From the IMG/VR virus record IMGVR_UViG_2565956708_000007: a DNA stretch of 64,000 nt, one strand, 5' to 3'. The stretch is from a virus. Taxonomy: Duplodnaviria > Heunggongvirae > Uroviricota > Caudoviricetes. The position numbers and the translations under genes are program-made. Position 1 is the first letter of the stretch, and every line of letters starts with the position of its first letter. The notes beneath the pieces are model-generated. The model ran no database searches. It saw nothing but the letters and a program-made list of their open reading frames with translations, and was not told the DNA's origin. Of this stretch, positions 1,475 through 64,000 are shown one piece after another.

Positions 1475-2959
1475 TTATTCATTAAGCCATGCCAGAGCTT
1501 CATCAACCTGCGCTTCGTCTTCGACGCTAAGCACTTCATCCTGGGGAACATAATCAGCCAGCATAGCGAAACAATATGTATCCCAATGGTCTGGTGAGTG
1601 CAGGTTGAGTTTTTTCTTCATATCCTCCTTACTCATCACCTTCCATTGACCTGCGGAGTTAATCCCTACAGGGATTTTCGACGCTTCCTCAATAGTTTCA
1701 TTACCCTTATCCAGTCTCATACGACCAGATTTTACGGCCTCTGCGGCTTGAACGTTGGCATAAGCACGCTTATCAAAGTACAGGCTCTTATCTTCACGGC
1801 TATGCATCTTTTTACCCCAGCGTATACGCTGTACGGTAATACCATAATACTCGTACATCAGATCCGCCGTTGCTTTACCCAGGCCATCGCCGTCTATCGC
1901 TATGGTGATATTTGGGAATCGCTCAGGATTACATTCTGCGAAAATTTTGGCGGCAAGCTGCGTTTCTGTAACGTCTGTGTATTCCAGCATTCGATAGTTG
2001 ATTACACGGCGTTTATTTCTCTGGCCGGACACCATCATGATATTGATAACGGACTTATCCCGTCCCGTACCACCAGCAACGTCCACACATGCAAGCCAGC
2101 CCCATCCTTTGGCAATCTTGACTTTCCGCCGCGTCGCACGTTCAACCTCATCACGTCCAAGAAGGAAGCCATCCTGTGATTTAGGGAATAGTCCGCGTAC
2201 TTTAATCATGTACATAGGGTTATCACGCCCGCCGTACTCCGCCAGCTTCATTTTGATAAATGCTGGCGTTACCAGCGGTGATTCCTCACTGTTAAGCGTG
2301 ATCGCCGTATAAACGCCATCAGGGTTACCAGGACGCTTGGCCAGTTTATGGTGAGTATCGTAGAAATAGCCGCTTGGGCGTGTAGGCTGTGACAGTAATA
2401 AGATGCGGTTATCCTGTCCGGTAAGAGCACCAGTGATGATACCGAAAGCTCTATCACTGACACCGGAGGCTTCATCGATAATATACAGAAGATGATCTGC
2501 GTGTTCACCGGCGAGAGCTTCTTCACTTCCCAGACGAAAGCCCTTCGGTACTACAGTCCATACACCTTTACCAGTAACCTCATAGAAAGCGGTTTCTGTC
2601 AGAACAAAATAATCAGCAAGCCATGGAAAACGGCTGGTGGCAGTAGCCCAGTTTATCTTGATGTACTTGAATATACCGGTCATTACCTGCTGAATTTTGT
2701 TCGCAACGATAATGGCGCGGGCACCGGGATACATGATTATGAACAACATGATCATGATAGAAGTCATGTCTGATTTCCCGGTACCGTGACCAGACGAAAC
2801 AGATGTCTTGCTACCCTGTTCCTGCACAGACTCAATAATCAGATCCTGCTGCCAGGTAGGTGTTTTGCCGAACAAAACATCAGCGGCCGCAATCCAGTCA
2901 TAACGATATAGCGCCACCAGCTCGCGCCAACGTGGATCCGTTACGCAACTTCTGGCCAT
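1475..2959 (-). CDS. pacB: Terminase large subunit PacB (494 aa)
   Basis: 494-aa ORF immediately downstream of pacA, convergent with c1; size and context as P1 pacB. Confidence 0.85.
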
Positions 2960-12977: not shown

Positions 12978-13708
12978 TGGTTGCCTCCTTTGCGAAGCTG
13001 GGCAGCAAAGTCAACTAACCACTCAGTCATTTCAACCTTCCCTACCAGGTCTGAACCAGGGTGCATACAGCAATCACTCTGCGCCGCTTTGAAATCCTTA
13101 TACTCATATTCTTGGGCCACCAGATTTTTTGCAGCTTCTATAGCAGCATCCACGCCCTGCGCCCGCACTTCAGCCAGGAAAGCATCGGTGGCTGGCATAT
13201 TTCCTGTTGCCTTCATGGCCTCCAAAATAACCAGAACGCCATCTCGCCCAACCACCTCAGCGATAACCTCGGTGTTGTCGCCAACAACATCGCAGAATGC
13301 CTGAACTGCCTTACGAGCCAGCTCATTCTCCACTGCCAGCGCCGTGCGATTACCCTCCAGCTCTGCAATGCGCTGTTTTGCGGCATCCAGTTCAATCGAC
13401 AATTTTTCCAACTGCTCTTGATGCTTCTTGTATTCCTGATATGCGTGCCAAGACTGACCTTTGCGCACACTATCAGTGATATCAGTAATCTGTTCTGGTG
13501 TTAGCGTGGTCAGTGGCTGTGATGGGAAAATAAGCACTTTCCCGGAATCCCAATCAAAACCAGCGTGAATTGACTGAACCTCAACTGAAGGTGTTGAACC
13601 AATGCTGCCAGGCGAATGAACAACGATTGTTACATCCATATCGCGACGATGGCTGTGGTTGTTGGACAAAATACGATTCACCAACTCAGAAAATTTGGAA
13701 AATTTCAT
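12974..13708 (-). CDS. Ea22-like protein paralog (244 aa)
   Basis: C-terminal ATDAFLAEVRAQG shared with 13992-14696. Confidence 0.5.
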   Translation of the reverse strand: MKFSKFSELVNRILSNNHSHRRDMDVTIVVHSPGSIGSTPSVEVQSIHAGFDWDSGKVLIFPSQPLTTLTPEQITDITDSVRKGQSWHAYQEYKKHQEQLEKLSIELDAAKQRIAELEGNRTALAVENELARKAVQAFCDVVGDNTEVIAEVVGRDGVLVILEAMKATGNMPATDAFLAEVRAQGVDAAIEAAKNLVAQEYEYKDFKAAQSDCCMHPGSDLVGKVEMTEWLVDFAAQLRKGGNQ

Positions 13709-14028
13709 GCTGATTCCCCTTTCTCTGCTCTCTCCTGTCGGAACATCACTATCATCAGGTCGCCTTTTGTCGCTATCCTGGCTGTTGTACCTGGTTCAAT
13801 GCGGCTAAGCTCAAATGCGTCATAGAACGCTTCTAATGCCTTCTGGCGTAGTTCCTGTTTGCGCCGTTTTTTCCACTGTTTTAGGAAAATGGAACCCAGC
13901 CATCGCCATGTGCGGGACATGATGTAAAGCCAACCGAGAAGTGCCAGACCGGTATTTAGGAGCGTATCGATCGTTATTGTCGTGTCGATATTCACTGGCT
14001 GCTTCCTTTGCGAATCTGTTCCGCCCAT
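13705..14028 (-). CDS. Small membrane protein (107 aa)
   Basis: hydrophobic N-terminal segment; basic region. Confidence 0.4.
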   Translation of the reverse strand: MGGTDSQRKQPVNIDTTITIDTLLNTGLALLGWLYIMSRTWRWLGSIFLKQWKKRRKQELRQKALEAFYDAFELSRIEPGTTARIATKGDLMIVMFRQERAEKGESA

Positions 14029-14696
14029 TCTTCAAGGGATTTCTCCGCATATTCACCAGACAGGCCATCAATCGGATGCGCTTCATTAGCCAACTCTTCT
14101 TTCGCTGACAAAATCATGCGTGTAACGTCGAAAACTTCACGCAAAGACTTATTGATAAATCCGTGATTGAACGCAGCAGCAAGACGGCTGGCGGTATAGT
14201 TAATCCCCTCGTTGCGTGCTTCCGCACGAATTTCAGCCAGAAAAGCATCGGTAGCTGGAGTTTCGCTGTGGTGCAGGGCATCGTTGATAATCATTGCAGC
14301 AACTCCGGCCTGCCCTGCATCCGTGACCGACACATGCTCAAGAGTTACGGCCATTGCGTGTTTCAGCCCGGCGTTCTCTGCCACCAGCGCCGCGAGCTTA
14401 GTCTCAAGCGGTGCTATTCGGCACATAGCATCAATATTTGTGTCCTCCAGGCGCTTAATTTCACCAAGTAGCTCCAGTGCAACCTTTGGGTTGAATGCGG
14501 CAACATAACGAGCGTTGTTCTCTGCGTTTTTCAGCCCATCAAAGCCGGTCCATTTGATAACATCTTCACATCGTTTATCACCGGGCGTATGCACAGCATA
14601 CGTACCTGTACCCGTCGAAATAAACGCGACCCATTCGCCCTGTGTTGCCTGTTTTGCTATCTCACGTAGTGCCTGATAGTTAATTTTGGTTGTCAT
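13992..14696 (-). CDS. Ea22-like protein paralog (234 aa)
   Basis: MTTKINYQALREIAKQ; ATDAFLAEIRAEA shared with neighbour. Confidence 0.55.
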   Translation of the reverse strand: MTTKINYQALREIAKQATQGEWVAFISTGTGTYAVHTPGDKRCEDVIKWTGFDGLKNAENNARYVAAFNPKVALELLGEIKRLEDTNIDAMCRIAPLETKLAALVAENAGLKHAMAVTLEHVSVTDAGQAGVAAMIINDALHHSETPATDAFLAEIRAEARNEGINYTASRLAAAFNHGFINKSLREVFDVTRMILSAKEELANEAHPIDGLSGEYAEKSLEEWAEQIRKGSSQ

Positions 14697-34801: not shown

Positions 34802-35703
34802 TGCTTAGCCTCTCCACCAAGGGCATTTACCAGAGCATCAACCAGGCACGAAATTTCACTGGTCAACAGGAAGAAATCTGCGTCCAGTCGCTGCGCTACA
34901 TCTTCACTATCAATATCAGAGTTCTGATCAAGCAATTCATCCGCAAATTTGACGCTGGTAAGGCTGAAGTTATGGTCCAGTGTAAATTTAATGCGGTTCT
35001 GCCAGTCGAGTGCCAACTTAGTGACGAGCTTGCCAGCTTCCAGGTGTGTGGAAATTTCATCGCTTCCCAAATCCTGCTTTTTCACTCGGGCAATACCGCC
35101 ATCCTCAAGCACTGCCTTAAGTTCTGCCGCATCCCCCATTTGAAATCCCTGTGGAGCACTACCATCACGTACCCAGTCGGTCAGCGTTAATTCAATGGGA
35201 TTTTCAACACTCAGGGGAACAACAGGAAGAGAACCCAGAGACTTACGCATAAGCGCGAGCATATCCTCTGCCTGCCGCGCGCTGGCATTGATATAGATAC
35301 GTTTAGTTGAACCGTCGTAGATCGCCTGGATAACAGAAAACTTTGAAAAAGCCCGTGGCAGAAGAGAATGCAGAACTTCGTCTTTCAGGGAGTCCTTCTC
35401 TGTTTTCTTCAGTTTACGCGCTTGTTCTTGCTCAAGTTTTTCAATTTTTTCTTGAATAGCTCGCTGGATAACCGGCGGGGGAAGAATTTTTGTTTCGCGC
35501 TTTGCTTCAACAAGGATAAAACCATTTCCATGCATAGCGATAACTTCGGAATTATCACCAAATGGAGATACAAAACCGAACTTGGCCATATCCTGACTAC
35601 CGCATGGCGTGAAAAGGATCATTTTCTTTTTATCTTCTAAGTCGGTCAGATCCGCCTCACGAGAAAGTTTATAAATAGTAATGTTTTTCCAGTGCTTAAA
35701 CAT
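34798..35703 (-). CDS. hrdC: HrdC, RdgC homolog (recombination-associated protein)
   Basis: strong resemblance to E. coli RdgC along the whole length ([11 protein letters not shown]..., [21 protein letters not shown]); start placed at MFKHWKN. Confidence 0.85.
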
Positions 35704-35980
35704 GTTGTAACCCTTGAATATCAACCACAGAAAGCTCGTCTTTGTAGAAAAAGGCCAGGTTGTGGCACCCCCTCGTTTGAGCGTATGAGCTGGGACCAAT
35801 TTCGTTCTTCCAGACAAATGGCTTCAAATCCGTACGGCGAAGCATAAAAACGCGATTTGTTCCGCTCTGATTCCCAATGAGGCAAAAGCCTTCTTTCACC
35901 TTGATAGCCTGCAAGTTGTCGAGTTCACCGCTGGTTACACGGCTATCGAACTCTTTGCGGCTTATTAGCTCCATCTGCAT
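35696..35980 (-). CDS. Small protein upstream of hrdC (possibly P1 uhr); start uncertain
   Basis: ORF between operator at 36052 and hrdC. Confidence 0.4.
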
Positions 35981-36051
35981 CTGACGACTCCAAACAAATG
36001 CCCATTGAAGGGCGATGGCTGAATGGTACCGAAAATACGACATAAAAAACA

Positions 36052-36068
36052 ATATTTATTAGAGCAAT
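36052..36068 (-). promoter_or_regulatory. C1 operator-like site for the uhr-hrdC-dmt operon
   Basis: plus strand ATATTTATTAGAGCAAT, 16/17. Confidence 0.7.
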
Positions 36069-36149
36069 TTTGCAATAGTTGAACTCCATGTAGACCACAA
36101 ACAACCTGAGTTAAAATAACGAAAATCAGAGCAAATAATTGGTGATAAC

Positions 36150-36434
36150 GTGGCAAGTATTGCAACAAAAGACAGCATTTGTTCGGGGCACGGAGGATTC
36201 CCATCCAGGCCTCCTGTAGAGAGTGAACCACTACTTAAAGTCAACGGAGTCGAAGTGTTAGTTGATGGTAAGCAATATGCACAGCATACCGATGGAAACA
36301 GTACGCACGGTGGGCAAGCTATATCAACCAGGGCATGGTTTACCGTCAATGGTAAAGGGATCGTATGCGTTGGTGACCCTGTTTCATGCGGATCTACCGT
36401 AGCGTCCGGAGACGGCCTGGTTCAGGTAAGTTAG
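36150..36434 (+). CDS. PAAR-repeat spike-tip protein, GTG start
   Basis: 94 aa; SGHGG, VCVGDPVSCGS and ASGDG segments typical of PAAR proteins. Confidence 0.55.
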   Translation: MASIATKDSICSGHGGFPSRPPVESEPLLKVNGVEVLVDGKQYAQHTDGNSTHGGQAISTRAWFTVNGKGIVCVGDPVSCGSTVASGDGLVQVS

Positions 36435-36442
36435 GAGATATC

Positions 36443-37231
36443 ATGCTGGAAAAAGACTACCAGTTATCCGCATATAAAAAATTGGCCGCCGCCGGTGGGA
36501 TGAAAACACCTGGTGCCATAACATCGGCACGAAACAGTGCTAACACAGCAAAACTGCTTGCAGAAGAATTGACCGGATTAATTCTGGATACAATTGTCTA
36601 TCCCGACACTATTACCAGCTATGTTTCAACGATCAGAACAACCACAACCGGCTTAACGAACATTGGAGAACTGGCAACTAAGCACGCGGACCTGTTGGCT
36701 GGTTATGCAGATCTGTCAATGCTGCTTCAACTCGATATTGGTTGGGATGTTTACTGCCGTGCTAATGAGCGAGAAGTATCAGAACTGCCGATCTCTATTG
36801 CCATTGGTGATGTGACTATTACTAAATCGCTTGAGGACGCTGTAAACGCGCTTAATACATCAAGTTTAGTCGCTGCTATGGGGGAGATTAACCAGACCCT
36901 TAACACTGGCTCAGGAAGCTCGTCAGGCTCTGGTTCAGGCGGCGGCACTGCCACTCCCCCACCAGCACTAACAGAAGAGCAAATTGAATCTCTGAAAGTA
37001 GCAACTGAACAGTTTGGGGTTGTATTCAACCAGACAACAGCGGCCACAACTGCGTTACAACAGCAGTATGAACGAGCGAATGAAAGCGCCAATGTAGCCA
37101 TAACTGCTTATAACCATGCTATCGGTACTGCGCTTGCGGAAGCATCAGCAAATAAGGCCAGCACAGCCAGCGCAGTTGCTGCTTTGGTTCCTGATTCTGT
37201 TCTTGATGAATTAAACAAAGCGGCACAGTAA
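36443..37231 (+). CDS. Hypothetical protein with Gly/Ser-rich linker
   Basis: ORF; SGSSSGSGSGGG linker. Confidence 0.5.
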   Translation: MLEKDYQLSAYKKLAAAGGMKTPGAITSARNSANTAKLLAEELTGLILDTIVYPDTITSYVSTIRTTTTGLTNIGELATKHADLLAGYADLSMLLQLDIGWDVYCRANEREVSELPISIAIGDVTITKSLEDAVNALNTSSLVAAMGEINQTLNTGSGSSSGSGSGGGTATPPPALTEEQIESLKVATEQFGVVFNQTTAATTALQQQYERANESANVAITAYNHAIGTALAEASANKASTASAVAALVPDSVLDELNKAAQ

Positions 37232-37270
37232 CAAAGGACTTCATTGATAATTTTTCTTCAGGAGGAAGAC

Positions 37271-37693
37271 ATGTCATTCTTTTCTACGTTAAAAACAGCT
37301 TTGTCTTTGAAGGAGAAACTTGCTGCTACTGGTGTTCTTGTTCTGATTTGCGCACTTGTTGGTGCTGGGTTTGCATGGGAACGTCATCAGCTAAAGCAAG
37401 CCATCGAGAAAATTGGCAGTCTTGATCAGGCTGTTAAGGAACGTGATAAGTCAATAATGGATCTTAACCAGACCATTGAGACGATGAACAAAGCAGAGCA
37501 ACATTTTCACAGCCAGGAAGTGAAAAATGAATCAGAACAAGCCAAATATGCTGACAGGCAAATGGAACGAAAAGCTGAAGTTCAGAAACAACTGGTTGCG
37601 GCGGGTAATGTTCGCCAGCGCATTCCTGCTGACACTCAGCGGTTGCTCCGGGAGTCGATCAGCGAATTTAACGCCGACGCCGACAAAGGTTAA
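37271..37693 (+). CDS. i-spanin-like protein (N-terminal TM anchor, periplasmic coiled coil)
   Basis: AGGAGG RBS; TM segment ATGVLVLICALVGAGFAW; coiled-coil remainder; overlapped by a lipoprotein ORF in another frame. Confidence 0.45.
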   Translation: MSFFSTLKTALSLKEKLAATGVLVLICALVGAGFAWERHQLKQAIEKIGSLDQAVKERDKSIMDLNQTIETMNKAEQHFHSQEVKNESEQAKYADRQMERKAEVQKQLVAAGNVRQRIPADTQRLLRESISEFNADADKG

Positions 37694-37859
37694 CCACCCT
37701 GCCTCCAAAAGTGCATTTATGTGCAGAATGCCAGAGTTTAGCAGTGAATATTTCGATGATCTGCCAGCGTATATCCTCGATACAGAAACGATGCTGATGG
37801 GGATTAACAGGAAGAATCGCAACGTTAATGATTACAACCGCGCTATCAGCGGTAACTAA
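37527..37859 (+). CDS. o-spanin-like outer-membrane lipoprotein, overlapping the preceding gene
   Basis: lipobox LLTLSGC; starts inside 37271-37693 in a different frame and extends beyond it. Confidence 0.45.
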   Translation: MNQNKPNMLTGKWNEKLKFRNNWLRRVMFASAFLLTLSGCSGSRSANLTPTPTKVNHPASKSAFMCRMPEFSSEYFDDLPAYILDTETMLMGINRKNRNVNDYNRAISGN

Positions 37860-37870
37860 AAGGGATTTTT

Positions 37871-38263
37871 ATGTCTGATAAAGTAACAGTAAAGCAAACT
37901 ATCAACAAAGCGACTTCAATCTACAAAATTGAGCACATCACTGTTGGCAAGCCAGGATCTGAACAATACCGTCATGCTTTCGAGCTTGCCGCTCAGCTTG
38001 GTTTAAAACACCCGGATTGCATTGAGCATGTATTTCCGACCTATGCTGATGAGCAATGTACTCATGTTCTTACCGAAGAGGATTTTTTCAGCACTGAAGA
38101 ACGAGAAGGCGTTGATCGCTGCATTGGTGTGATTTGCTCTTCAGTGAGTTATGAGTTATTCCCTAATGTCCATGAAAATGGTGGTATTGGATACCAATTC
38201 CTGTACGAAGGCGATGAGCTTAAATGTTATGAACATGGTCTTCTTATCGAAAGCGTAGAATAA
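37871..38263 (+). CDS. Hypothetical protein (130 aa)
   Basis: ORF upstream of origin. Confidence 0.5.
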   Translation: MSDKVTVKQTINKATSIYKIEHITVGKPGSEQYRHAFELAAQLGLKHPDCIEHVFPTYADEQCTHVLTEEDFFSTEEREGVDRCIGVICSSVSYELFPNVHENGGIGYQFLYEGDELKCYEHGLLIESVE

Positions 38264-38299
38264 TACCCTTCCTTCCAACCGGCTATGTTGGCCGGTTTA

Positions 38300-38400
38300 T
38301 TCAACTTATCCACAGCATAGATCCAATAAACAGATCCCAAAGAGAACCTAGGAAGATCCAAAGAAGATCCCGGATCGCTGTAAGCCGCGCCGTTCATGGC
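38300..38400 (+). other. Plasmid origin core: DnaA box and cluster of six GATC (Dam) sites
   Basis: TTATCCACA at 38306-38314; GATC at 38320, 38333, 38355, 38366, 38373, 38410, mostly within AGATCC heptamers. Confidence 0.75.
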
Positions 38401-38417
38401 CTGAAACGGGATCAACA

Positions 38418-38522
38418 TTGACTATACGCGATTTTATGTTGACTGTGTGCGATTTTATGTTGACTGCACGCGATTTATTGTTGACTATACGCGACAGAAA
38501 CGTTGACTGTACGCGATTTTAG
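38418..38522 (+). repeat. Five direct iterons upstream of repA (incC-type)
   Basis: TTGACTRYRCGCGATTTTATG units starting at 38418, 38439, 38460, 38481, 38503 (21-22 bp period). Confidence 0.85.
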
Positions 38523-38597
38523 AGCCTGAATATTCACAGCTGTTGATAACAGTCATCTAAATTAACGCCAGGCCGCGCCACACATGGAGAAACCACG

Positions 38598-39482
38598 ATG
38601 CCGGAAGAAAGTAAAGGCTTCCTTAGCGTTGAAGAAGTTGCAGGAAATACAGGAGAAATCCACAGCCTGAAGCCCAATAACAACAGCACTATACAACCTA
38701 TCGCTTTGTTGCGCTTAGGTGTGTTTGTGCCAACCTTAAAATCTACCAATGTGGCACTACGTCGCGGATCGTCAGTTACAACAAACACAACGAACGCAAC
38801 TGAAGAACTATCAAGCCTCAAAATTGTTGAGCAGGAAGGCTATGAGGGAATTGAAATTCATGGTCCACGCCTGGATATGGATACTGATTTTAAGGTGTGG
38901 GTGGGCATAACCTCCGCGTTGTTTGACTACGCACCTGATGATGACGGCATAATCACCCTGCCATTCTCCGAGTTTGCCGATCGATGCGGCTATCCACGTA
39001 AGCGCCTTTCAAAGGCGTTCCGTAAAAGTATTGATGACTCTCTGACACGCATTCAGCAGACAGTTGTCAAATTCCGCTTCCCGGCGGCAAAAGGTCATCT
39101 CAATAACATTAACGTCAACTTGTTGGCATATAGCAGCCTGAATACCGAGCTTGATGTTATCGAGATCCAGCCGCAGAAACAGCTATCTGAACTTTACTAT
39201 GTTGACTATAAGCGAATCCTGAAGCTGAAGATGCTGGATAAACTAGGGCGCAAAGAGACGGCCAAGGTACTGTATACATTCTTTGAGGCTCTACCCGCCA
39301 ACCCGGCACCTGTCAGCATTGAGCGCCTTAGAGCGAGGCTTAATCTCAAATCATCCGTTAGCGTGCAAAATAGCGTTATCAGAAAAGCCATGAAAGATTT
39401 GGAAGCTATTGAATATCTTAAATTTTCAGAGATAAAAAACGGCAGGAAAATCGGCTTCCAGATCCATAAGCGCAATCCATAA
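38598..39482 (+). CDS. repA: RepA plasmid replication initiator (P1/P7 family, divergent from P1 RepA)
   Basis: shares blocks with P1 RepA (PVALMRLGVFVP, GPRLDMDTDFK, FVIVHSRNP-like end) but differs in the N-terminus and in iteron sequence. Confidence 0.85.
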   Translation: MPEESKGFLSVEEVAGNTGEIHSLKPNNNSTIQPIALLRLGVFVPTLKSTNVALRRGSSVTTNTTNATEELSSLKIVEQEGYEGIEIHGPRLDMDTDFKVWVGITSALFDYAPDDDGIITLPFSEFADRCGYPRKRLSKAFRKSIDDSLTRIQQTVVKFRFPAAKGHLNNINVNLLAYSSLNTELDVIEIQPQKQLSELYYVDYKRILKLKMLDKLGRKETAKVLYTFFEALPANPAPVSIERLRARLNLKSSVSVQNSVIRKAMKDLEAIEYLKFSEIKNGRKIGFQIHKRNP

Positions 39483-39745
39483 TATTGACTATATGCGATA
39501 GCGAGAAGTTGACTATAGGCGACATTCGTTGACGCTGGTGGATTTTTGCTGGCGTCAATATTCTGCAAGTCGCTATTGAGATGGCTTTTAGGGGCATTTC
39601 ATCGCGTATAGTCAACGTTTCTCCCGACAATATCTTACATAGTCGATCTTTGGTGGAGTTAAATCGACTACAGTCAACTTTTGACTGTAGTCACATCGCG
39701 CATAGTCAACTATTCACATTAACCTTCGCGCATAGTCAACATTTG
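39483..39745 (+). repeat. incA-type iteron array downstream of repA, iterons in both orientations
   Basis: TTGACTATATGCGA, TTGACTATAGGCGA, TTGACTGTAGTCA direct; TCGCGTATAGTCAA, TCGCGCATAGTCAA (x2), GACTACAGTCAA inverted. Confidence 0.75.
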
Positions 39746-48653: not shown

Positions 48654-49280
48654 GTGCCTGTACTGTTAAAGGGGGACTCTAAAATGGCTGTGATTCCAAT
48701 GTCGTACTCCCCGGGTACTGTCGCTCGTCGATTTTCGATCCTGGACGGAGTTACCATCCAAGGTGTGCTTTACCAGGTTATATGGGATTCCAAAACCCCA
48801 TTTGCAGCTGTAATAGAGGCTGCGCCTTCTATTATCGATGGTGATATGCGCCATAAGGTTGTCGCTACTCTTGAACTTCAACGTCGCCCGCAGCTTGAAG
48901 GCGTACTGGTAAGGAAGTTCTGGGAGGATAGCGATGTTGCCCAGATTGAAGGTATCGTGGTTGATGGAACCGTCCGGGATGTCGGTTTAGCTACTTTTGT
49001 TTACGAAACCGTAGCCTCAAAAGCTGGTGTTGTTTTGCTCAGTGATAATGAGCAATACGAAGGTGGAAAAGCTCTTTGGCAACACATCGCCCGTCGCTCT
49101 TCCGAGCTAAAAGTGTTTATCCTTGACACCGATGCCGCTCAGTATTACCCGTTTGACGGCGAACGTGTTTGCTATGACGGGGTAAGTATTCCTGAATCCG
49201 AGATATGGAGTGAACACCCAGATCGAAGTAAGCATGGGGTTGTTCTGGTCGCTGAATCCATAATTGGAAATGCGGCATAG
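48654..49280 (+). CDS. Hypothetical protein (208 aa; likely start MAVIPMS)
   Basis: ORF. Confidence 0.45.
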   Translation: MPVLLKGDSKMAVIPMSYSPGTVARRFSILDGVTIQGVLYQVIWDSKTPFAAVIEAAPSIIDGDMRHKVVATLELQRRPQLEGVLVRKFWEDSDVAQIEGIVVDGTVRDVGLATFVYETVASKAGVVLLSDNEQYEGGKALWQHIARRSSELKVFILDTDAAQYYPFDGERVCYDGVSIPESEIWSEHPDRSKHGVVLVAESIIGNAA

Positions 49281-49462
49281 CAGTAAAAAATTCCTTGCTC
49301 CTTAAAAGGGGAGAGGGTTAATCTACGTATGCTAAGCATAGATATGGCCTCAGATTAATGTTAAGCGTCTTGCAGGACGCGTAATGTTATCTGGGGCTTT
49401 CTTCTATCTGCTTTTCGGGTAATGCCTGAAGCAGATAGCCTCAAGCACCCGCAACGATTGTA

Positions 49463-52854: not shown

Positions 52855-53009
52855 AGTTACGGCCTCACAATCAGGTTTAACAACCTGCTACCCGCTGCTA
52901 AACAGGTGGCAGGACGTGACGGGGTTAGCAGACTGGCGATTGTGAAACCAGCAGGCCGAAGCCTCCCCATCACGCCCCACCATAATTTGGGCGTAACGCG
53001 GTTTTACGG

Positions 53010-53120
53010 ACACAAAAATACCGCAATATCGGATATCTGCGGCTGTCCGCACAATCATTCAGGCTGCTAAACCCGGTCGCAGAATTTGCTACGACGGCGG
53101 AACTATAAGCCTGAACGATT
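53010..53120 (-). ncRNA. c4: c4 antisense repressor RNA region (boundaries approximate) with 3' terminator-like hairpin
   Basis: between operator 53169-53185 and icd; contains GGGUUUAGCAGCC complementary to a downstream leader element UCUGCUAACCCC and CGGCCU complementary to the icd RBS AGGCCG; hairpin plus U-run at 53010-53041. Confidence 0.45.
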
Positions 53121-56681: not shown

Positions 56682-59600
56682 ATGGAAAGAAAAAACGCCA
56701 ACATTGACGATGTGATAAGGACGGTTGAAACCGCCAGCGCAAAAGAGCTGGAAGAGCTTGCAGGTATTCGGGAAGCCGTTGAAGATTTGAAAGGTGGGCG
56801 AGTTGCTACAGTTGATCCTGTCTCTCGCAGTGTGTCGGCATTAAATCGCACAATCGAAAATTCCCGGCCAGACTTTGTGGCCAATGCGCCATCAGTGGAC
56901 CCTATTGTTGAGGCAATGAAACGGCTTAATTTAGGGGACGTTTCTCGTGTAGTTCAGGAGGATGTTGCTCTACAGGAACCGCAGGCCAAATCAACTACGC
57001 GAAAGGGTAAAAAACGACGCAAGAAGGCTATAACAGAAGATGTAAAGGCGCAACGGACCGAAGCAGCCGAACACGCTCGCGAAATGTTCGGTCAAAAAGG
57101 CGGTGCGCAAAAAAGCCAAAACCAACGCGATGCGCGTGGTCGTTTTATTGGAAAGTCAGGGAGTAAGGCCGCAGCGGAAGATGCCCGTGCTGAACGTGCT
57201 GAAAAGGCCAGGCGCAAAGAGGATGATGAGCGTCTAAATGCTGAATCAGGTTTATTAAAAAAACTGTCAAAAGTAGCTGAAGGCATAGGTAACCCTTCAG
57301 AGACTCGTGCCGTCGATGCGTTAGGTTATGCCGTTGCTGGTCCATTGTGGGCAGCAGGGAAGGAGCTTGGCGGGATATCAAAAGAAGTTGGTGGATCGCT
57401 TAATGGTGCCAGAAAGTCTATTGCCGATGTGATTCGTGGCAATGACGATAACAGCCGTAGAAAAGGTTTTTTTAGGCGTAAATCGCAAAATAGTGCCGAT
57501 GTCGTTCAGGTTAACACCCAAAAACGGACGGTTCAGGAACTTCAGGAGCAGACCAGCGAAATTAAAGAGGGCAATGACAAGATTCTCCGCGCCCTTGATC
57601 AGATAGCCAAAAACACCGGGAAAAAGAAGGGCGGCTTGCTGTCCAAACTATTTAGCCTGTTAGGGAAGGGGGCCGGTGGCGTCGCGTCGTTGTTAATGGG
57701 GCGTGGCATGCTGAAAAAAGCTGGAGCACTCGCTTTTGGCGCTCTGGGGGCAAAGAAACTTGTAGGAATGCTACGCGGTGGTGGCAAGAAGACTCTCGCC
57801 CATGAAGGCGGAGATTTGGCTGCCCGGGCAGCAGGTAAACTTGGATTAAAGGCAGTTGGTAAAGGGGCGTTACGCGCAATTCCCCTAGTCGGCACAGTGG
57901 CTGGAGGTATTTATGATGCGGTAACCGGTTGGAATGATACAGAAGCGCAACGTCGAGCGTTTGGGCTTAAATCAGGACAAGATCCATCATTCCAGCAAAA
58001 AGCCGCTTATACGTTAGCCAATGTTCTTGATTTGGGGGGACTGGTATCTGGTATTAGCAGTGCTATTGGTGATGTTCTCAAATCACTTGGATTTGAGGAT
58101 ATCGGCAATATGTTGCAATCATTTTCGACGGAAAGTATTGCCCAGGCCATTGATAGCGGGGTTACCAACTTAGAAACATATATTTCTAACCTTGGCGACA
58201 CCATTTCTACCAAGTTCGATGATTACACAGCAAAGATTGGTGATGCTGTTTCAGCATGGTTTAGCGATACATCTAATAAGTTGCTTGAAAAGCTGGATGC
58301 CATAAAAGACTTCTTTACTGTCGATAACCTGAAACAGGTTTTCAGTGATGCAATTGATAGTGCAATTGACTTCATTAAGAACCCAGGGAAACACATTAAA
58401 GAGGCGGCTGGTAATATTTGGGATGGGGTTAAAAATTTACCCGGTAAAGCATTAGATGCAGCGGTTGATGCCGTTAAAAATACCCCTGCGGCAATGATTG
58501 TATCAAAAATACCCAATCCGATCGGCGAGGCTAATGCAAAAGAAATCACTCCAGAGTTAAAAGCTCCGGTTAATAGCCACCAGGAGACATCTGATTCTAA
58601 AACTGAATCCGATGCTAAACAGACTAATATTGCTACCCGCGTGATAAATGCGGCACTGGACACGGCGAAAGATAGCAATAAAACAGTTAAAGAAACTGCC
58701 AATCAGATTATCAATGCAAATGCCGTAGAAACGGGCAATAGCGCGGTGCGGAAAATTGATTCAGCTATTGGACAAAATAGCTCGTCATCATCGTCGCGTA
58801 ATACCACCGGCACTGGGAATGACATTCAGAAAGCTGCTGATACCTACAATAATGGCAACTTAGATGTAAAAGTCGGAAGCCTTGGCGCTGAAGGTAAGGC
58901 AAATCTCGATAAGTTAGCTCCGTATTTTGCTGAACTAGAGAATAAATATGGTCTTCCTGAAGGCACTCTTTACGCGATTGCTGCAACTGAATCTGGTGGT
59001 AATCCATACGCAAAATCCCAAACTGGTGCTCTAGGAATGTTTCAGTTCACGGGCATTGCTCGTGAAGAGACTGGCTTAGCTGAAGGTGAATCGTTTGATC
59101 CTGTGAAATCGGCAGAAGCTGCGGCTCTTCTCATGAGCAAGTATCTGAAGCAAGCCAATGGAGACTTAAACGAGGCCATCACTGCATATAACGCTGGGTT
59201 TGGCACTATTAATAAGTGGAAAAAAGGCACCGGTGACTTATCGAAGGAAAACCGTGAGTACGCGATCAAGGTCAATACTCATCGTGCTCGCTATTTAGGT
59301 GGTGAAATCTATACACCTGGGGCAGGAGCACAGGGTGGGGCGCAATATGGAGTGAGGGGACAACTGCCTGATAACGCCGTTATCGATCAGTCTACTGGTC
59401 TGGCGTTTACCCCTGGTGATAGCCCGTTTGAGAAAGGCGGTCTGGTAGACAAAATCGGCAATGCTGTTGGCGTTAACGATCTGGTCAACAAATTCATGAA
59501 TGGCCGGGGTATGCGTCGGGAAGTCGTTCAGGGAACGCTCGAAGAACGTGCACGAGGGAAGGGGACCGCAACAGCAGCTGGCAATGTGTATGTTGATACT

Positions 59601-63220: not shown

Positions 63221-64000
63221 ATGAATGACGTTACAGTTGTTACATCGGTTACTTACCCATCACCCGAGTCGTTGGCTCTGGTGGCTGATGTGCAATACCA
63301 CGAACCATATCTGTCAGCCGCTCTAAACCGAAAATTCAGGGGAATTGTTGACCCGGGATTTTATGCTGGTTTCTTGCCTAAGCCTGGCGGTGGAATGAAC
63401 CTGTTAATCACCTCAGTGGATGGAGATAAAACCGCTGGCGCGGCGTCAGTGGATATTGGTGAATTCTACCAGGTAACTATTCAGCATCGTAAGGATATCT
63501 CTCTTGCACTTAACGCAGGCAAGAAATATGCAATTGTGCTGAAGGGAAGATACCTTCTTGGAGAAGATACCTATCAGGTGAATACCGCGTCACATATTCA
63601 TGCAGCTGAATTTGTTGCCAGAACCTATACCGATTCATATCAGTTAGGTGATGGGGAACTGCTGGTTTGTACGGTGAATATCCCTGCTGGCGTATCTACC
63701 ATTACTCAAGAGATGATTGATACATCCGAGCGTATCAACCGCACGATCGGCATTGATATTTCAGACTCTGTAACCAGTACCAGAAGTGATGTTGCTGCGA
63801 GTTCGCTGGCAGTTAAAAAAGCCTACGATCTGGCGAAAAGCAAATATACGGCGCAGGATGCAAGCACAACGCAAAAGGGATTAGTTCAGCTCAGTAGTGC
63901 CACTAACAGTACGTCCGAAGTGCTGGCCGCCACACCGAAAGCTGTCAAGGCTGCATATGACCTGGCTAACGGGAAGTATACAGCCCAGGATGCAACCACG
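63221..64000 (+). CDS. Tail fibre protein, N-terminal part (P1 S-like); continues beyond window end
   Basis: open frame from ATG at 63221 to window end; repeated KKAYDLAKSKYTAQDA / ATPKAVKAAYDLANGKYTAQDA motifs typical of tail fibres. Confidence 0.7.
   Translation, partial: MNDVTVVTSVTYPSPESLALVADVQYHEPYLSAALNRKFRGIVDPGFYAGFLPKPGGGMNLLITSVDGDKTAGAASVDIGEFYQVTIQHRKDISLALNAGKKYAIVLKGRYLLGEDTYQVNTASHIHAAEFVARTYTDSYQLGDGELLVCTVNIPAGVSTITQEMIDTSERINRTIGIDISDSVTSTRSDVAASSLAVKKAYDLAKSKYTAQDASTTQKGLVQLSSATNSTSEVLAATPKAVKAAYDLANGKYTAQDATT

Follow-up and report, generated by a model that had tools for sequence, protein, structure and literature searches.

The Rz/Rz1 pair of phage lambda combines a type II helical inner-membrane protein with a small outer-membrane lipoprotein carrying one periplasmic cysteine. 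The Rz1 gene is wholly embedded in that of Rz, and Rz is crosslinked by periplasmic cysteines. In the LysB/LysC pair of phage P2, the prototype of the overlapped arrangement, the o-spanin gene uses the +1 frame, beginning within the 3' portion of the i-spanin gene and ending past its stop; this pair lies in the lysis cassette. By the criteria of Summer et al. 2007 and Kongari et al. 2018, an i-spanin is recognized by a single N-terminal transmembrane domain of N-in/C-out topology, followed by a helical periplasmic domain built as two helices with a linker, and an o-spanin by a signal peptidase II lipobox cysteine without Asp at position +2. The o-spanin gene is embedded in, overlaps, or adjoins the i-spanin gene, and the pair usually, but not obligatorily, belongs to the lysis cassette or adjoins it. 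In function, the two proteins of such a pair should form a complex, be required for disruption of the outer membrane, and complement lambda Rz/Rz1. At the level of profiles, both proteins are expected to match PHROG spanin clusters significantly over most of their length.

In phage P1, the RefSeq record describes ppfA (gp064) as having "possible periplasmic function" and gives mlp (gp063) the product name "Rz-like spanin," while other P1-like records name the two genes Rz and Rz1. As cited by Bednarek et al. 2022 (PMC9025707), the pair was proposed as the P1 spanins from predicted features by Summer et al. 2007. Bednarek et al. likewise treat ppfA and mlp as the predicted spanin genes of P1, whose operon is not linked to lyz or lydA/B; their article swaps the i- and o-spanin labels of the two genes, an assignment that the sequence features contradict. 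Kongari et al. 2018 (Table S1) list gp064 and gp063 as an overlapped ("ovl") i-spanin/o-spanin pair of family "P1."

Here we analyze this pair in a 64,000-nucleotide stretch of phage DNA, hereafter the window. A preliminary description of the window had noticed an overlapped i-spanin/o-spanin arrangement, and the gene architecture, the PHROG profiles, the annotation of P1, and the catalog of Kongari et al. 2018 all agree with it. That description had missed that the pair is already known as the catalogued ppfA/mlp of P1. What we add is comparative proof of dual coding, a note on the start codon of mlp, and the finding that annotation pipelines mis-call the o-spanin.

The element and its ppfA-mlp locus

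The whole window is a P1-like phage-plasmid (Punavirus). It is collinear, in reversed orientation, with positions 92264->31146 of plasmid pEC00592_4. The region of about 4 kb around the pair is 97.5-98.2% identical to the P1-like phages Ro157c2YLVW, RCS47, and SJ46, and it matches 734 plasmid records, with E. coli and Salmonella among the hosts and a top identity of 99.2% (E. coli). Elsewhere in the window, Rfam matches comprise the P1-typical C4 antisense RNA, sok, and three tRNAs; no Rfam RNA family was found within or near ppfA/mlp. The pair differs from P1 DNA at nine nucleotides in 589 bp, and P1 and P7 share with it the 167-nt overlap, the Shine-Dalgarno sequences, the neighbors upfC, upfB, and upfA, and the site upstream of the plasmid origin. 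Homology to P1/P7 ends at about position 38392, and a different replicon follows from there on: unlike in P1, a Rep3-type replicon with its own iterons lies downstream of upfA, as in P1-like plasmids of the SJ46/RCS47 type. The features of the locus are collected in Table 1.

Table 1. Features of the ppfA-mlp locus and its surroundings, in window coordinates
Feature	Position	Strand	Remarks
upfC	36150..36434	+	PAAR tail-spike tip; PF05488, phrog_281; co-oriented with the pair, upstream
upfB	36386..37231	+	Tail-tip "tripod" protein; phrog_1559; 39-nt gap to ppfA
ppfA Shine-Dalgarno AGGAGG	37260..37265	+	Read in the sequence, 5 nt before the ATG
ppfA	37271..37693	+	ATG ORF, 140 aa; type II inner-membrane protein with helical periplasmic domain
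PpfA transmembrane segment, residues 17-35	37319..37375	+	LAATGVLVLICALVGAGFA; Kyte-Doolittle 19-residue window maximum 2.35
Shine-Dalgarno-like AGGAAG	37515..37520	+	6 nt before the annotated mlp ATG; AGGAGG in divergent relatives
mlp	37527..37859	+	+1 frame relative to ppfA; 110-aa lipoprotein precursor
Alternative mlp start TTG	37596..37598	+	16 codons before the lipobox Cys
Doubly constrained overlap	37596..37693	+	PpfA last helix (RQRIPADTQRLLRESISEFNADA) plus Mlp signal core and mature N-terminus
Lipobox L-S-G-C	37635..37646	+	Cys40 (37644-37646) is the predicted lipidated first mature residue
Second Cys of Mlp, C66 in FMCRMPEF	37722..37724	+	Invariant in 69 alleles
upfA	37871..38263	+	phrog_1453, unknown function; begins 11 nt past the mlp stop; last gene before the origin
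Plasmid origin iterons	38413..38519	.	Five TTGACTrTrCGCGA copies, 21-22 bp spacing (repeat search)
repA	38598..39482	+	Rep3-type replication initiator, PF21205 and PF01051; replicon differs from P1's own

PpfA as a candidate i-spanin

PpfA is 100% identical to its P1 counterpart, and the AGGAGG ahead of its gene is the Shine-Dalgarno sequence given for P1 gp064 in Table S1 of Kongari et al. 2018. The transmembrane segment is its sole hydrophobic stretch and follows an N-terminus of net charge +2, which points to a single N-terminal membrane helix of N-in/C-out topology, as judged by hydropathy and the positive-inside rule rather than by a dedicated predictor. The only Cys of the protein sits inside the transmembrane segment; the 104 residues beyond it abound in E, Q, A, and K and contain no Cys and a single Pro. 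The same division is made for P1 gp064 in Table S1 of Kongari et al. 2018, where an N-terminal/TMD part of 36 residues precedes a periplasmic part of 104, with 0 periplasmic Cys and "one in TMD." An AlphaFold2 model computed from an 18-sequence alignment (mean pLDDT 69, i.e., moderate confidence) consists of two helices, at residues 13-110 and 120-138, separated by a non-helical stretch of low confidence (111-119), and so presents the two helices and linker of an i-spanin periplasmic domain; its pTM of 0.28 is what one would expect of an extended monomer. A PDB sequence search with PpfA found nothing relevant, the best match being a ribosomal protein at E = 0.48. The reading of 37271-37693 as a type II membrane protein in the preliminary description is thus borne out by the membrane segment, the positively charged N-terminus, and the modelled helical periplasmic domain.

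Mlp as a candidate o-spanin

The coordinates agree with the preliminary description also in that a lipoprotein gene begins within ppfA, in another frame, and ends 166 bp past its stop: mlp overlaps ppfA by 167 nt, runs 166 nt beyond the ppfA stop, and has its own stop codon at 37857-37859. Mlp is identical to P1 Mlp at 107/110 positions, the differences being S7N, V32A, and P60S, and two of these changes lie inside the overlap and are silent in ppfA. Its signal region, VMFASAFLLTLSG|C, consists of a hydrophobic core followed by the lipobox, and the residue at +2 after Cys40 is Ser, of the outer-membrane sorting type. The lipobox noted earlier is invariant as LSGC|S in all 69 alleles compared (see below), so that a signal peptidase II cysteine without Asp at +2 is present throughout. 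For P1 gp063, Kongari et al. 2018 (Table S1) report a LipoP cleavage at the 39th position and no Prosite match, with a length of 110 aa, of which 71 are mature, and 1 periplasmic Cys. The mature protein here is of the same length and contains 5 Pro; C66 is its only periplasmic Cys besides the lipobox Cys40 and may be a candidate for a homodimer disulfide. PpfA, having no periplasmic Cys, would on that account form any dimer non-covalently.

A crude pattern of a basic residue, a hydrophobic run, and a lipobox occurs at only some 5 places in the six-frame translation of the 64-kb window, which argues against chance. The other lipoprotein seen inside the window, an SPFH protein, carries Asp at +2.

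Dual coding of the overlap

We compared loci from P1, P7, plasmids, IMG/VR contigs, and assemblies, reaching relatives with down to ~60% identity in PpfA, which are P1-like plasmids of Salmonella, Cronobacter, and Klebsiella; a scan of genome contigs for other species yielded just three loci, all near-identical. Each of the distinct nucleotide alleles (69/69) keeps the +1 frame open over 109-123 codons, and neither the lipobox Cys nor the +2 Ser nor the Cys of FMCRMPEF varies among them.

Nucleotide diversity per codon position was calculated from 67 indel-free alleles, with zones numbered in the 589-nt pair and values given for ppfA positions 1/2/3. The zone coding for ppfA only (1-253) has 0.088/0.074/0.160, the pattern of the ppfA frame, and the zone coding for mlp only (424-586) has 0.170/0.048/0.034, the pattern of the mlp frame, ppfA position 1 being mlp position 3. 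Between them, the overlap from the Mlp signal core to the ppfA stop (326-420) is low at all three positions (0.033/0.046/0.064), as under double constraint, and the first 23 mlp codons (257-325) show 0.052/0.053/0.193, a stretch in which Mlp is free of amino-acid constraint. The ppfA stop is exactly the point at which the codon-position variation ceases to follow the ppfA frame and begins to follow that of mlp, and the wobble diversity of ppfA falls from 0.16-0.19 upstream to 0.064 where the Mlp signal core and lipobox are encoded. The last helix of PpfA, RQRIPADTQRLLRESISEFNADA, which is read from this same DNA, varies less than any other part of the protein, as a double constraint on the overlap would lead one to expect. 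Both frames encode proteins under purifying selection, and this selection spans ~40% protein divergence.

In public assemblies the two proteins also occur fused into one of 195 aa, or of 193 aa in a single variant (e.g., P0067, 31 members; P0068, 22 members), but intact alleles dominate, with 274 member sequences in P0029 and 834 in P0030. We considered a programmed PpfA-Mlp frameshift and rejected it on the grounds that the junctions fall at six or more positions (after residues 85, 97, 104, 110, 127, and 139); the 195-aa fusions represent independent 1-nt deletions or assembly errors.

None of PGAP, RAST, and Prodigal calls the full mlp ORF; they report only a 3' fragment of 43-52 aa. The 43-aa fragment of PGAP and RAST begins at M68 and contains neither the signal peptide nor the lipobox nor either of the cysteines.

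Two possible starts of mlp

The start of mlp could be either the ATG at 37527 or the TTG at 37596. The upstream ATG is present in every allele, and its position is not strictly conserved, being one codon further downstream in a divergent group. The AGGAAG preceding it coincides with the Q-E-V codons of ppfA, so that a purine-rich Shine-Dalgarno sequence at this site is partly forced by the PpfA sequence. Initiation there yields a signal peptide of 39 residues, which is unusually long, with an n-region of charge +6; Kongari et al. 2018 (Table S1) remark of P1 gp063, "Too long signal sequence." If this ATG is used, the signal peptide of Mlp would be among the longest lipoprotein signal peptides known in spanins.

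Initiation at the TTG yields a canonical signal peptide of 16 residues, M-RRVMFASAFLLTLSG|C. The codon at this position is TTG in 60/69 unique alleles, those of the P1 group, and ATG in 9/69, which are divergent; the ppfA residue across it is H, D, or Y, always from a NAT codon, and no Shine-Dalgarno sequence was found before the TTG. That the codon 16 positions ahead of the lipobox Cys is the sole true start was rejected, since in one further lineage (L177) this codon is AGG, which leaves the upstream ATG as the only one of the two starts. Residues 1-23 of Mlp show no amino-acid constraint, ppfA wobble being mlp position 2 in this zone, and judged from the alleles this would fit a tolerant n-region or non-translation. 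We also set aside the stop-free state of this extension as coding evidence: it is uninformative, as the local ppfA codons probably rarely allow stops in the +1 frame.

Gene neighborhood and distance to the lysis genes

Immediately upstream of ppfA, on the same strand, are genes for virion proteins. In the cryo-EM structure of P1 (PMC12810830, 2026), UpfC is the monomeric tail-spike tip and UpfB the baseplate "tripod" attached to the spike. Lying behind these late structural genes in the same orientation, the pair is placed in a manner that fits expression during lytic growth. All divergent loci share the order rdgC-uhr <- -> PAAR-upfB-ppfA-mlp, and the gene after mlp varies, being upfA or, in some relatives, a gp49_66-family gene that replaces or precedes upfA. 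The iterons (38413-38519) and repA (38598-39482) follow, and the earlier statement that the pair is next to the plasmid origin is correct.

A scan of the window for an LPlyz-like late promoter, with the P1 -22 box and -10 (AAGTGATTT-N4-TATCCT) as query and 2 mismatches allowed, found no such motif at 35.9-37.3 kb. The P1 record has only predicted sigma-70 promoters before ppfA, P1ppfA and P2ppfA, and no late promoter is annotated there. A generic scan for sigma-70 promoters and terminators returned no more than shuffled sequences did, with no convincing terminator between upfB and ppfA.

The preliminary description had also placed the pair far from any endolysin in the window, and this holds. 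In pEC00592_4, the lysozyme gene (13518-14075) and the holin genes (13277-13489 and 23730-24397) lie outside the part that matches the window, whereas the counterpart of the pair is at 56792-57380; lyz, lydD, and lydA/C are accordingly outside the window, and the pair is neither in nor next to a lysis cassette. In P1 itself, lyz (20325-20882) and ppfA/mlp (63354-63942) are ~43 kb apart, as the lysis genes and the pair also are on the plasmid, and dispersed lysis genes are a known peculiarity of this phage (PMC9025707). The distance from the endolysin is thus a characteristic of P1 and no anomaly. Judged by the mapping to pEC00592_4, the only protein in the window with a lytic-transglycosylase domain is a large one (reference 35072-38464, roughly window 56.7-60.1 kb), which corresponds by size and position to the tape-measure protein Sit (PMC12810830), a virion protein and not a lysis endolysin.

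Relation to curated families and to the lambda and P2 pairs

Both proteins match PHROG spanin profiles significantly over most of their length: PpfA matches phrog_89, "Rz-like spanin," over residues 21-139 (E = 5.1e-25), and Mlp matches phrog_30284 over its full length (E = 2.4e-76) and phrog_456 (E = 7.7e-5). In Pfam-A (hmmscan, E <= 0.1), neither protein hits the Rz (PF03245) or Rz1 (PF06085) family; for PpfA the scan lists no more than coiled-coil noise below threshold, and for Mlp it lists nothing. The P2 families are approached only below the NCBIfam thresholds, LysB (TIGR03495) at 18.2 bits and E = 0.0023 against a cutoff of 92.75 and LysC (NF038368) at 13.3 bits against a cutoff of 27. 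These sub-threshold scores speak against membership in the lambda or P2 sequence families, not against spanin function.

The closest likeness in gene arrangement is to P2 LysB/LysC, with which ppfA/mlp shares the out-of-frame overlap and the topology signals, but the sequence similarity is faint and below threshold, and ppfA/mlp is ~43 kb from the endolysin. The lambda proteins are of the same two types as PpfA and Mlp, the lipoprotein having one periplasmic Cys in either case. In contrast to Rz1, however, mlp only overlaps its partner gene, and in contrast to Rz, PpfA has no periplasmic cysteines to be crosslinked. Rz1 is also a protein of ~40 aa that is much richer in proline than Mlp, with its 71 mature residues and 5 Pro.

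The predicted spanin function and its alternatives

Taken together, the pair is very probably a two-component spanin of this P1-like phage-plasmid. The identity of the genes, their topology signals, and their conservation are directly observed, as is the purifying selection in both frames. Against the spanin reading count the plating results of a CRISPRi study, the sub-threshold scores to curated families, the lack of a periplasmic Cys in PpfA, the missing late promoter, and the 39-residue signal peptide.

A rival view is that PpfA and Mlp are real envelope proteins whose main role is not lysis but, for example, exclusion, envelope modification, or plasmid-related fitness, with sigma-70 transcription in the lysogen. 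The only promoters in the P1 record before ppfA are of the sigma-70 type, no LPlyz-like motif lies nearby, the genes are beside the plasmid maintenance region and ~43 kb from lyz, and similarity to the curated Rz and LysB families is below threshold. Furthermore, CRISPRi knock-down of either gene left P1 plating undiminished, with an EOP of 1.3 for ppfA and 0.24 for mlp, and both were scored non-essential for plaque formation, whereas the same study scored lambda Rz as essential. However, spanins are reported to be dispensable for lysis in shaken laboratory cultures (PMC9025707), which makes dispensability in the laboratory compatible with a spanin. The combination of a type II helical membrane protein with an out-of-frame outer-membrane lipoprotein is, moreover, a defining and rather specific spanin signature; PHROG spanin profiles match both proteins, the genes immediately upstream encode virion baseplate proteins, i.e., are late genes, and the other lipoprotein of the window, the SPFH protein, has Asp rather than Ser at +2. 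We therefore consider a main role outside lysis improbable. There is also a small chance that the pair, which lies in the tail-tip operon (upfC-upfB-ppfA-mlp-upfA), departs from a textbook late lysis function: as no Lpa-dependent late promoter is recognizable and the predicted promoters are all sigma-70, it could be made in the lysogen and have an added envelope role. As a separate matter, mlp may start at TTG 37596.

The single-nucleotide deletions that produce the 195-aa (193-aa) fusions at six or more positions of the overlap, along with the non-essentiality of both genes by CRISPRi, could alternatively mean that the pair is a decaying or dispensable remnant, inherited in P1-like plasmids under weak selection. 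This appears highly improbable given that intact alleles predominate (P0029 and P0030), that both frames are under purifying selection with an invariant lipobox and invariant Cys residues, and that some of the frameshifted versions are possibly assembly errors. The still simpler idea that the +1 ORF is a chance open frame, with ppfA as the sole gene, would account for the short 3' calls of PGAP, RAST, and Prodigal, and the first 23 codons are probably open by composition, few ppfA codons there having T at position 2. Yet the 166 bp past the ppfA stop vary mainly at mlp third positions, and ppfA wobble is frozen exactly at the Mlp signal core and lipobox; the openness of the frame in all alleles, the codon-position diversity, and the invariant residues refute the chance-frame reading in practice. 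The preliminary description had allowed that the lipoprotein frame might lack a functional start or signal sequence; a start codon preceded by a Shine-Dalgarno sequence, a signal core, and a lipobox are present and conserved.

As a spanin pair, PpfA and Mlp would act as follows. The single N-terminal helix of PpfA is predicted to anchor it in the inner membrane, with a mostly helical domain of ~100 residues exposed to the periplasm. Mlp would be exported, lipidated at Cys40, and cut by signal peptidase II, and, because its +2 residue is Ser, would be inserted via the Lol pathway into the outer membrane, in its inner leaflet. By analogy with the lambda Rz/Rz1 paradigm, from which the formation of a complex, the fusion of membranes, and the need for Lyz are inferred, the two would bind through their C-terminal parts and bridge the periplasm, restrained by the peptidoglycan meshwork. 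Once the SAR-endolysin Lyz, timed by the LydA/LydB holin-antiholin, had degraded the wall, the freed complexes may collapse and so fuse the inner with the outer membrane, removing the last barrier to phage release. The pair would in this way do the job of lambda Rz/Rz1, disrupting the outer membrane after wall degradation. Because the genes overlap, one stretch of DNA encodes both the last PpfA helix and, for Mlp, the signal core and mature N-terminus.

Implications

Beyond correct annotation, the identification of the pair in this element has little wider importance, and either outcome regarding the start codon or the expression of the genes would refine P1 biology modestly rather than reveal a new kind of system. 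Automatic pipelines nevertheless still mis-call the o-spanin, and the pair, which was recovered from the letters of the window alone, is a good positive control for the detection of out-of-frame overlapping genes. A firm parts list for P1 lysis has some practical value, given that P1 is widely used for transduction and that resistance genes are spread by P1-like plasmids.

Annotation and database variants of the ppfA/mlp overlap

The o-spanin gene, mlp, is truncated in the gene calls of PGAP, RAST and Logan/ENA, which report only a 3' fragment encoding 43-52 aa; the full gene is present only in the hand-curated records of P1 and P7. The 43-aa calls of PGAP and RAST begin only at M68 of Mlp, past both cysteines, and so carry neither lipobox nor signal peptide.

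Public assemblies also contain PpfA-Mlp fusion proteins of 195 aa (193 aa in the database protein P0002), which originate from single-nucleotide deletions within the ppfA/mlp overlap. The most frequent deletion falls in the A5 run immediately 5' of the mlp ATG (P0067, with 31 members, and P0068, with 22). A programmed frameshift is not indicated as their source, since the deletions lie at at least six different positions in the overlap. The fusions either exist in nature, as null alleles, or are artefacts of assembly.

Genomic context

The operator Op68/Odmt sits in a divergent region, from which uhr-hrdC-dmt run leftward and upfC-upfB-ppfA-mlp-upfA rightward. No promoter is annotated in P1 for the rightward operon; a weak TTAAAA-17-AATAAT match is seen in this region at 36111-36139. 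Within the operon, UpfB (36386-37231) is the tail-tip "tripod" of P1 (2026 cryo-EM, PMC12810830), and its residues 216-257, preceded by a Gly/Ser-rich linker, give a weak, sub-threshold match to the Pfam SLT transglycosylase domain (E = 0.016; 15 bits versus a cutoff of 21.3).

The other lipobox in the window belongs to an SPFH-domain lipoprotein, which is not spanin-like; the Asp at +2 (LTGC|D) suggests that this protein would be retained in the inner membrane. Its gene and the overlapping gene for a two-TM protein form a pair adjoined by the tRNA gene at 29637-29709. This is one of three tRNA genes matched by Rfam, alongside the sok antitoxin RNA, the C4 antisense RNA and the a1/b1 targets of C4, a set typical of P1-like elements.

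Homology to P1/P7 ends just past upfA; in the region 38392-39525 the replicon differs from theirs and is of the Rep3 type, and close relatives carry a GIY-YIG nuclease gene after repA. This replicon is that of the SJ46/RCS47-type P1-like plasmids.

Coordinates of features in the window and of equivalent database entries
Feature	Position	Strand	Remarks
sok, C4 antisense RNA, tRNAs	49276-49450, 52902-52987, 53056-53108, 31713-31863, 29637-29709	-	Rfam matches
275-aa lipoprotein	29737-30564	-	SPFH/Band 7, PF01145, E = 1e-30
78-aa protein, two TM	30545-30781	-	Precedes and overlaps lipoprotein gene
Op68/Odmt	36051-36068		C1 repressor operator, AATATTTATTAGAGCAAT
PpfA-Mlp fusions	Equivalent to 37271-37859		P0031, P0039, P0044, P0046, P0050, P0067, P0068, P0002
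Truncated o-spanin call, L002 (related locus)	2729-2860		Compare window 37527-37859
Truncated o-spanin call, pEC00592_4 (reference plasmid)	56792-56923		Compare window 37527-37859
Iterons	38413-38519		TTGACTrTrCGCGA
repA	38598-39482		Rep3-type replicon
Weaker iteron copy (68%)	39197-39218		Within repA
Two further iterons	39480-39525
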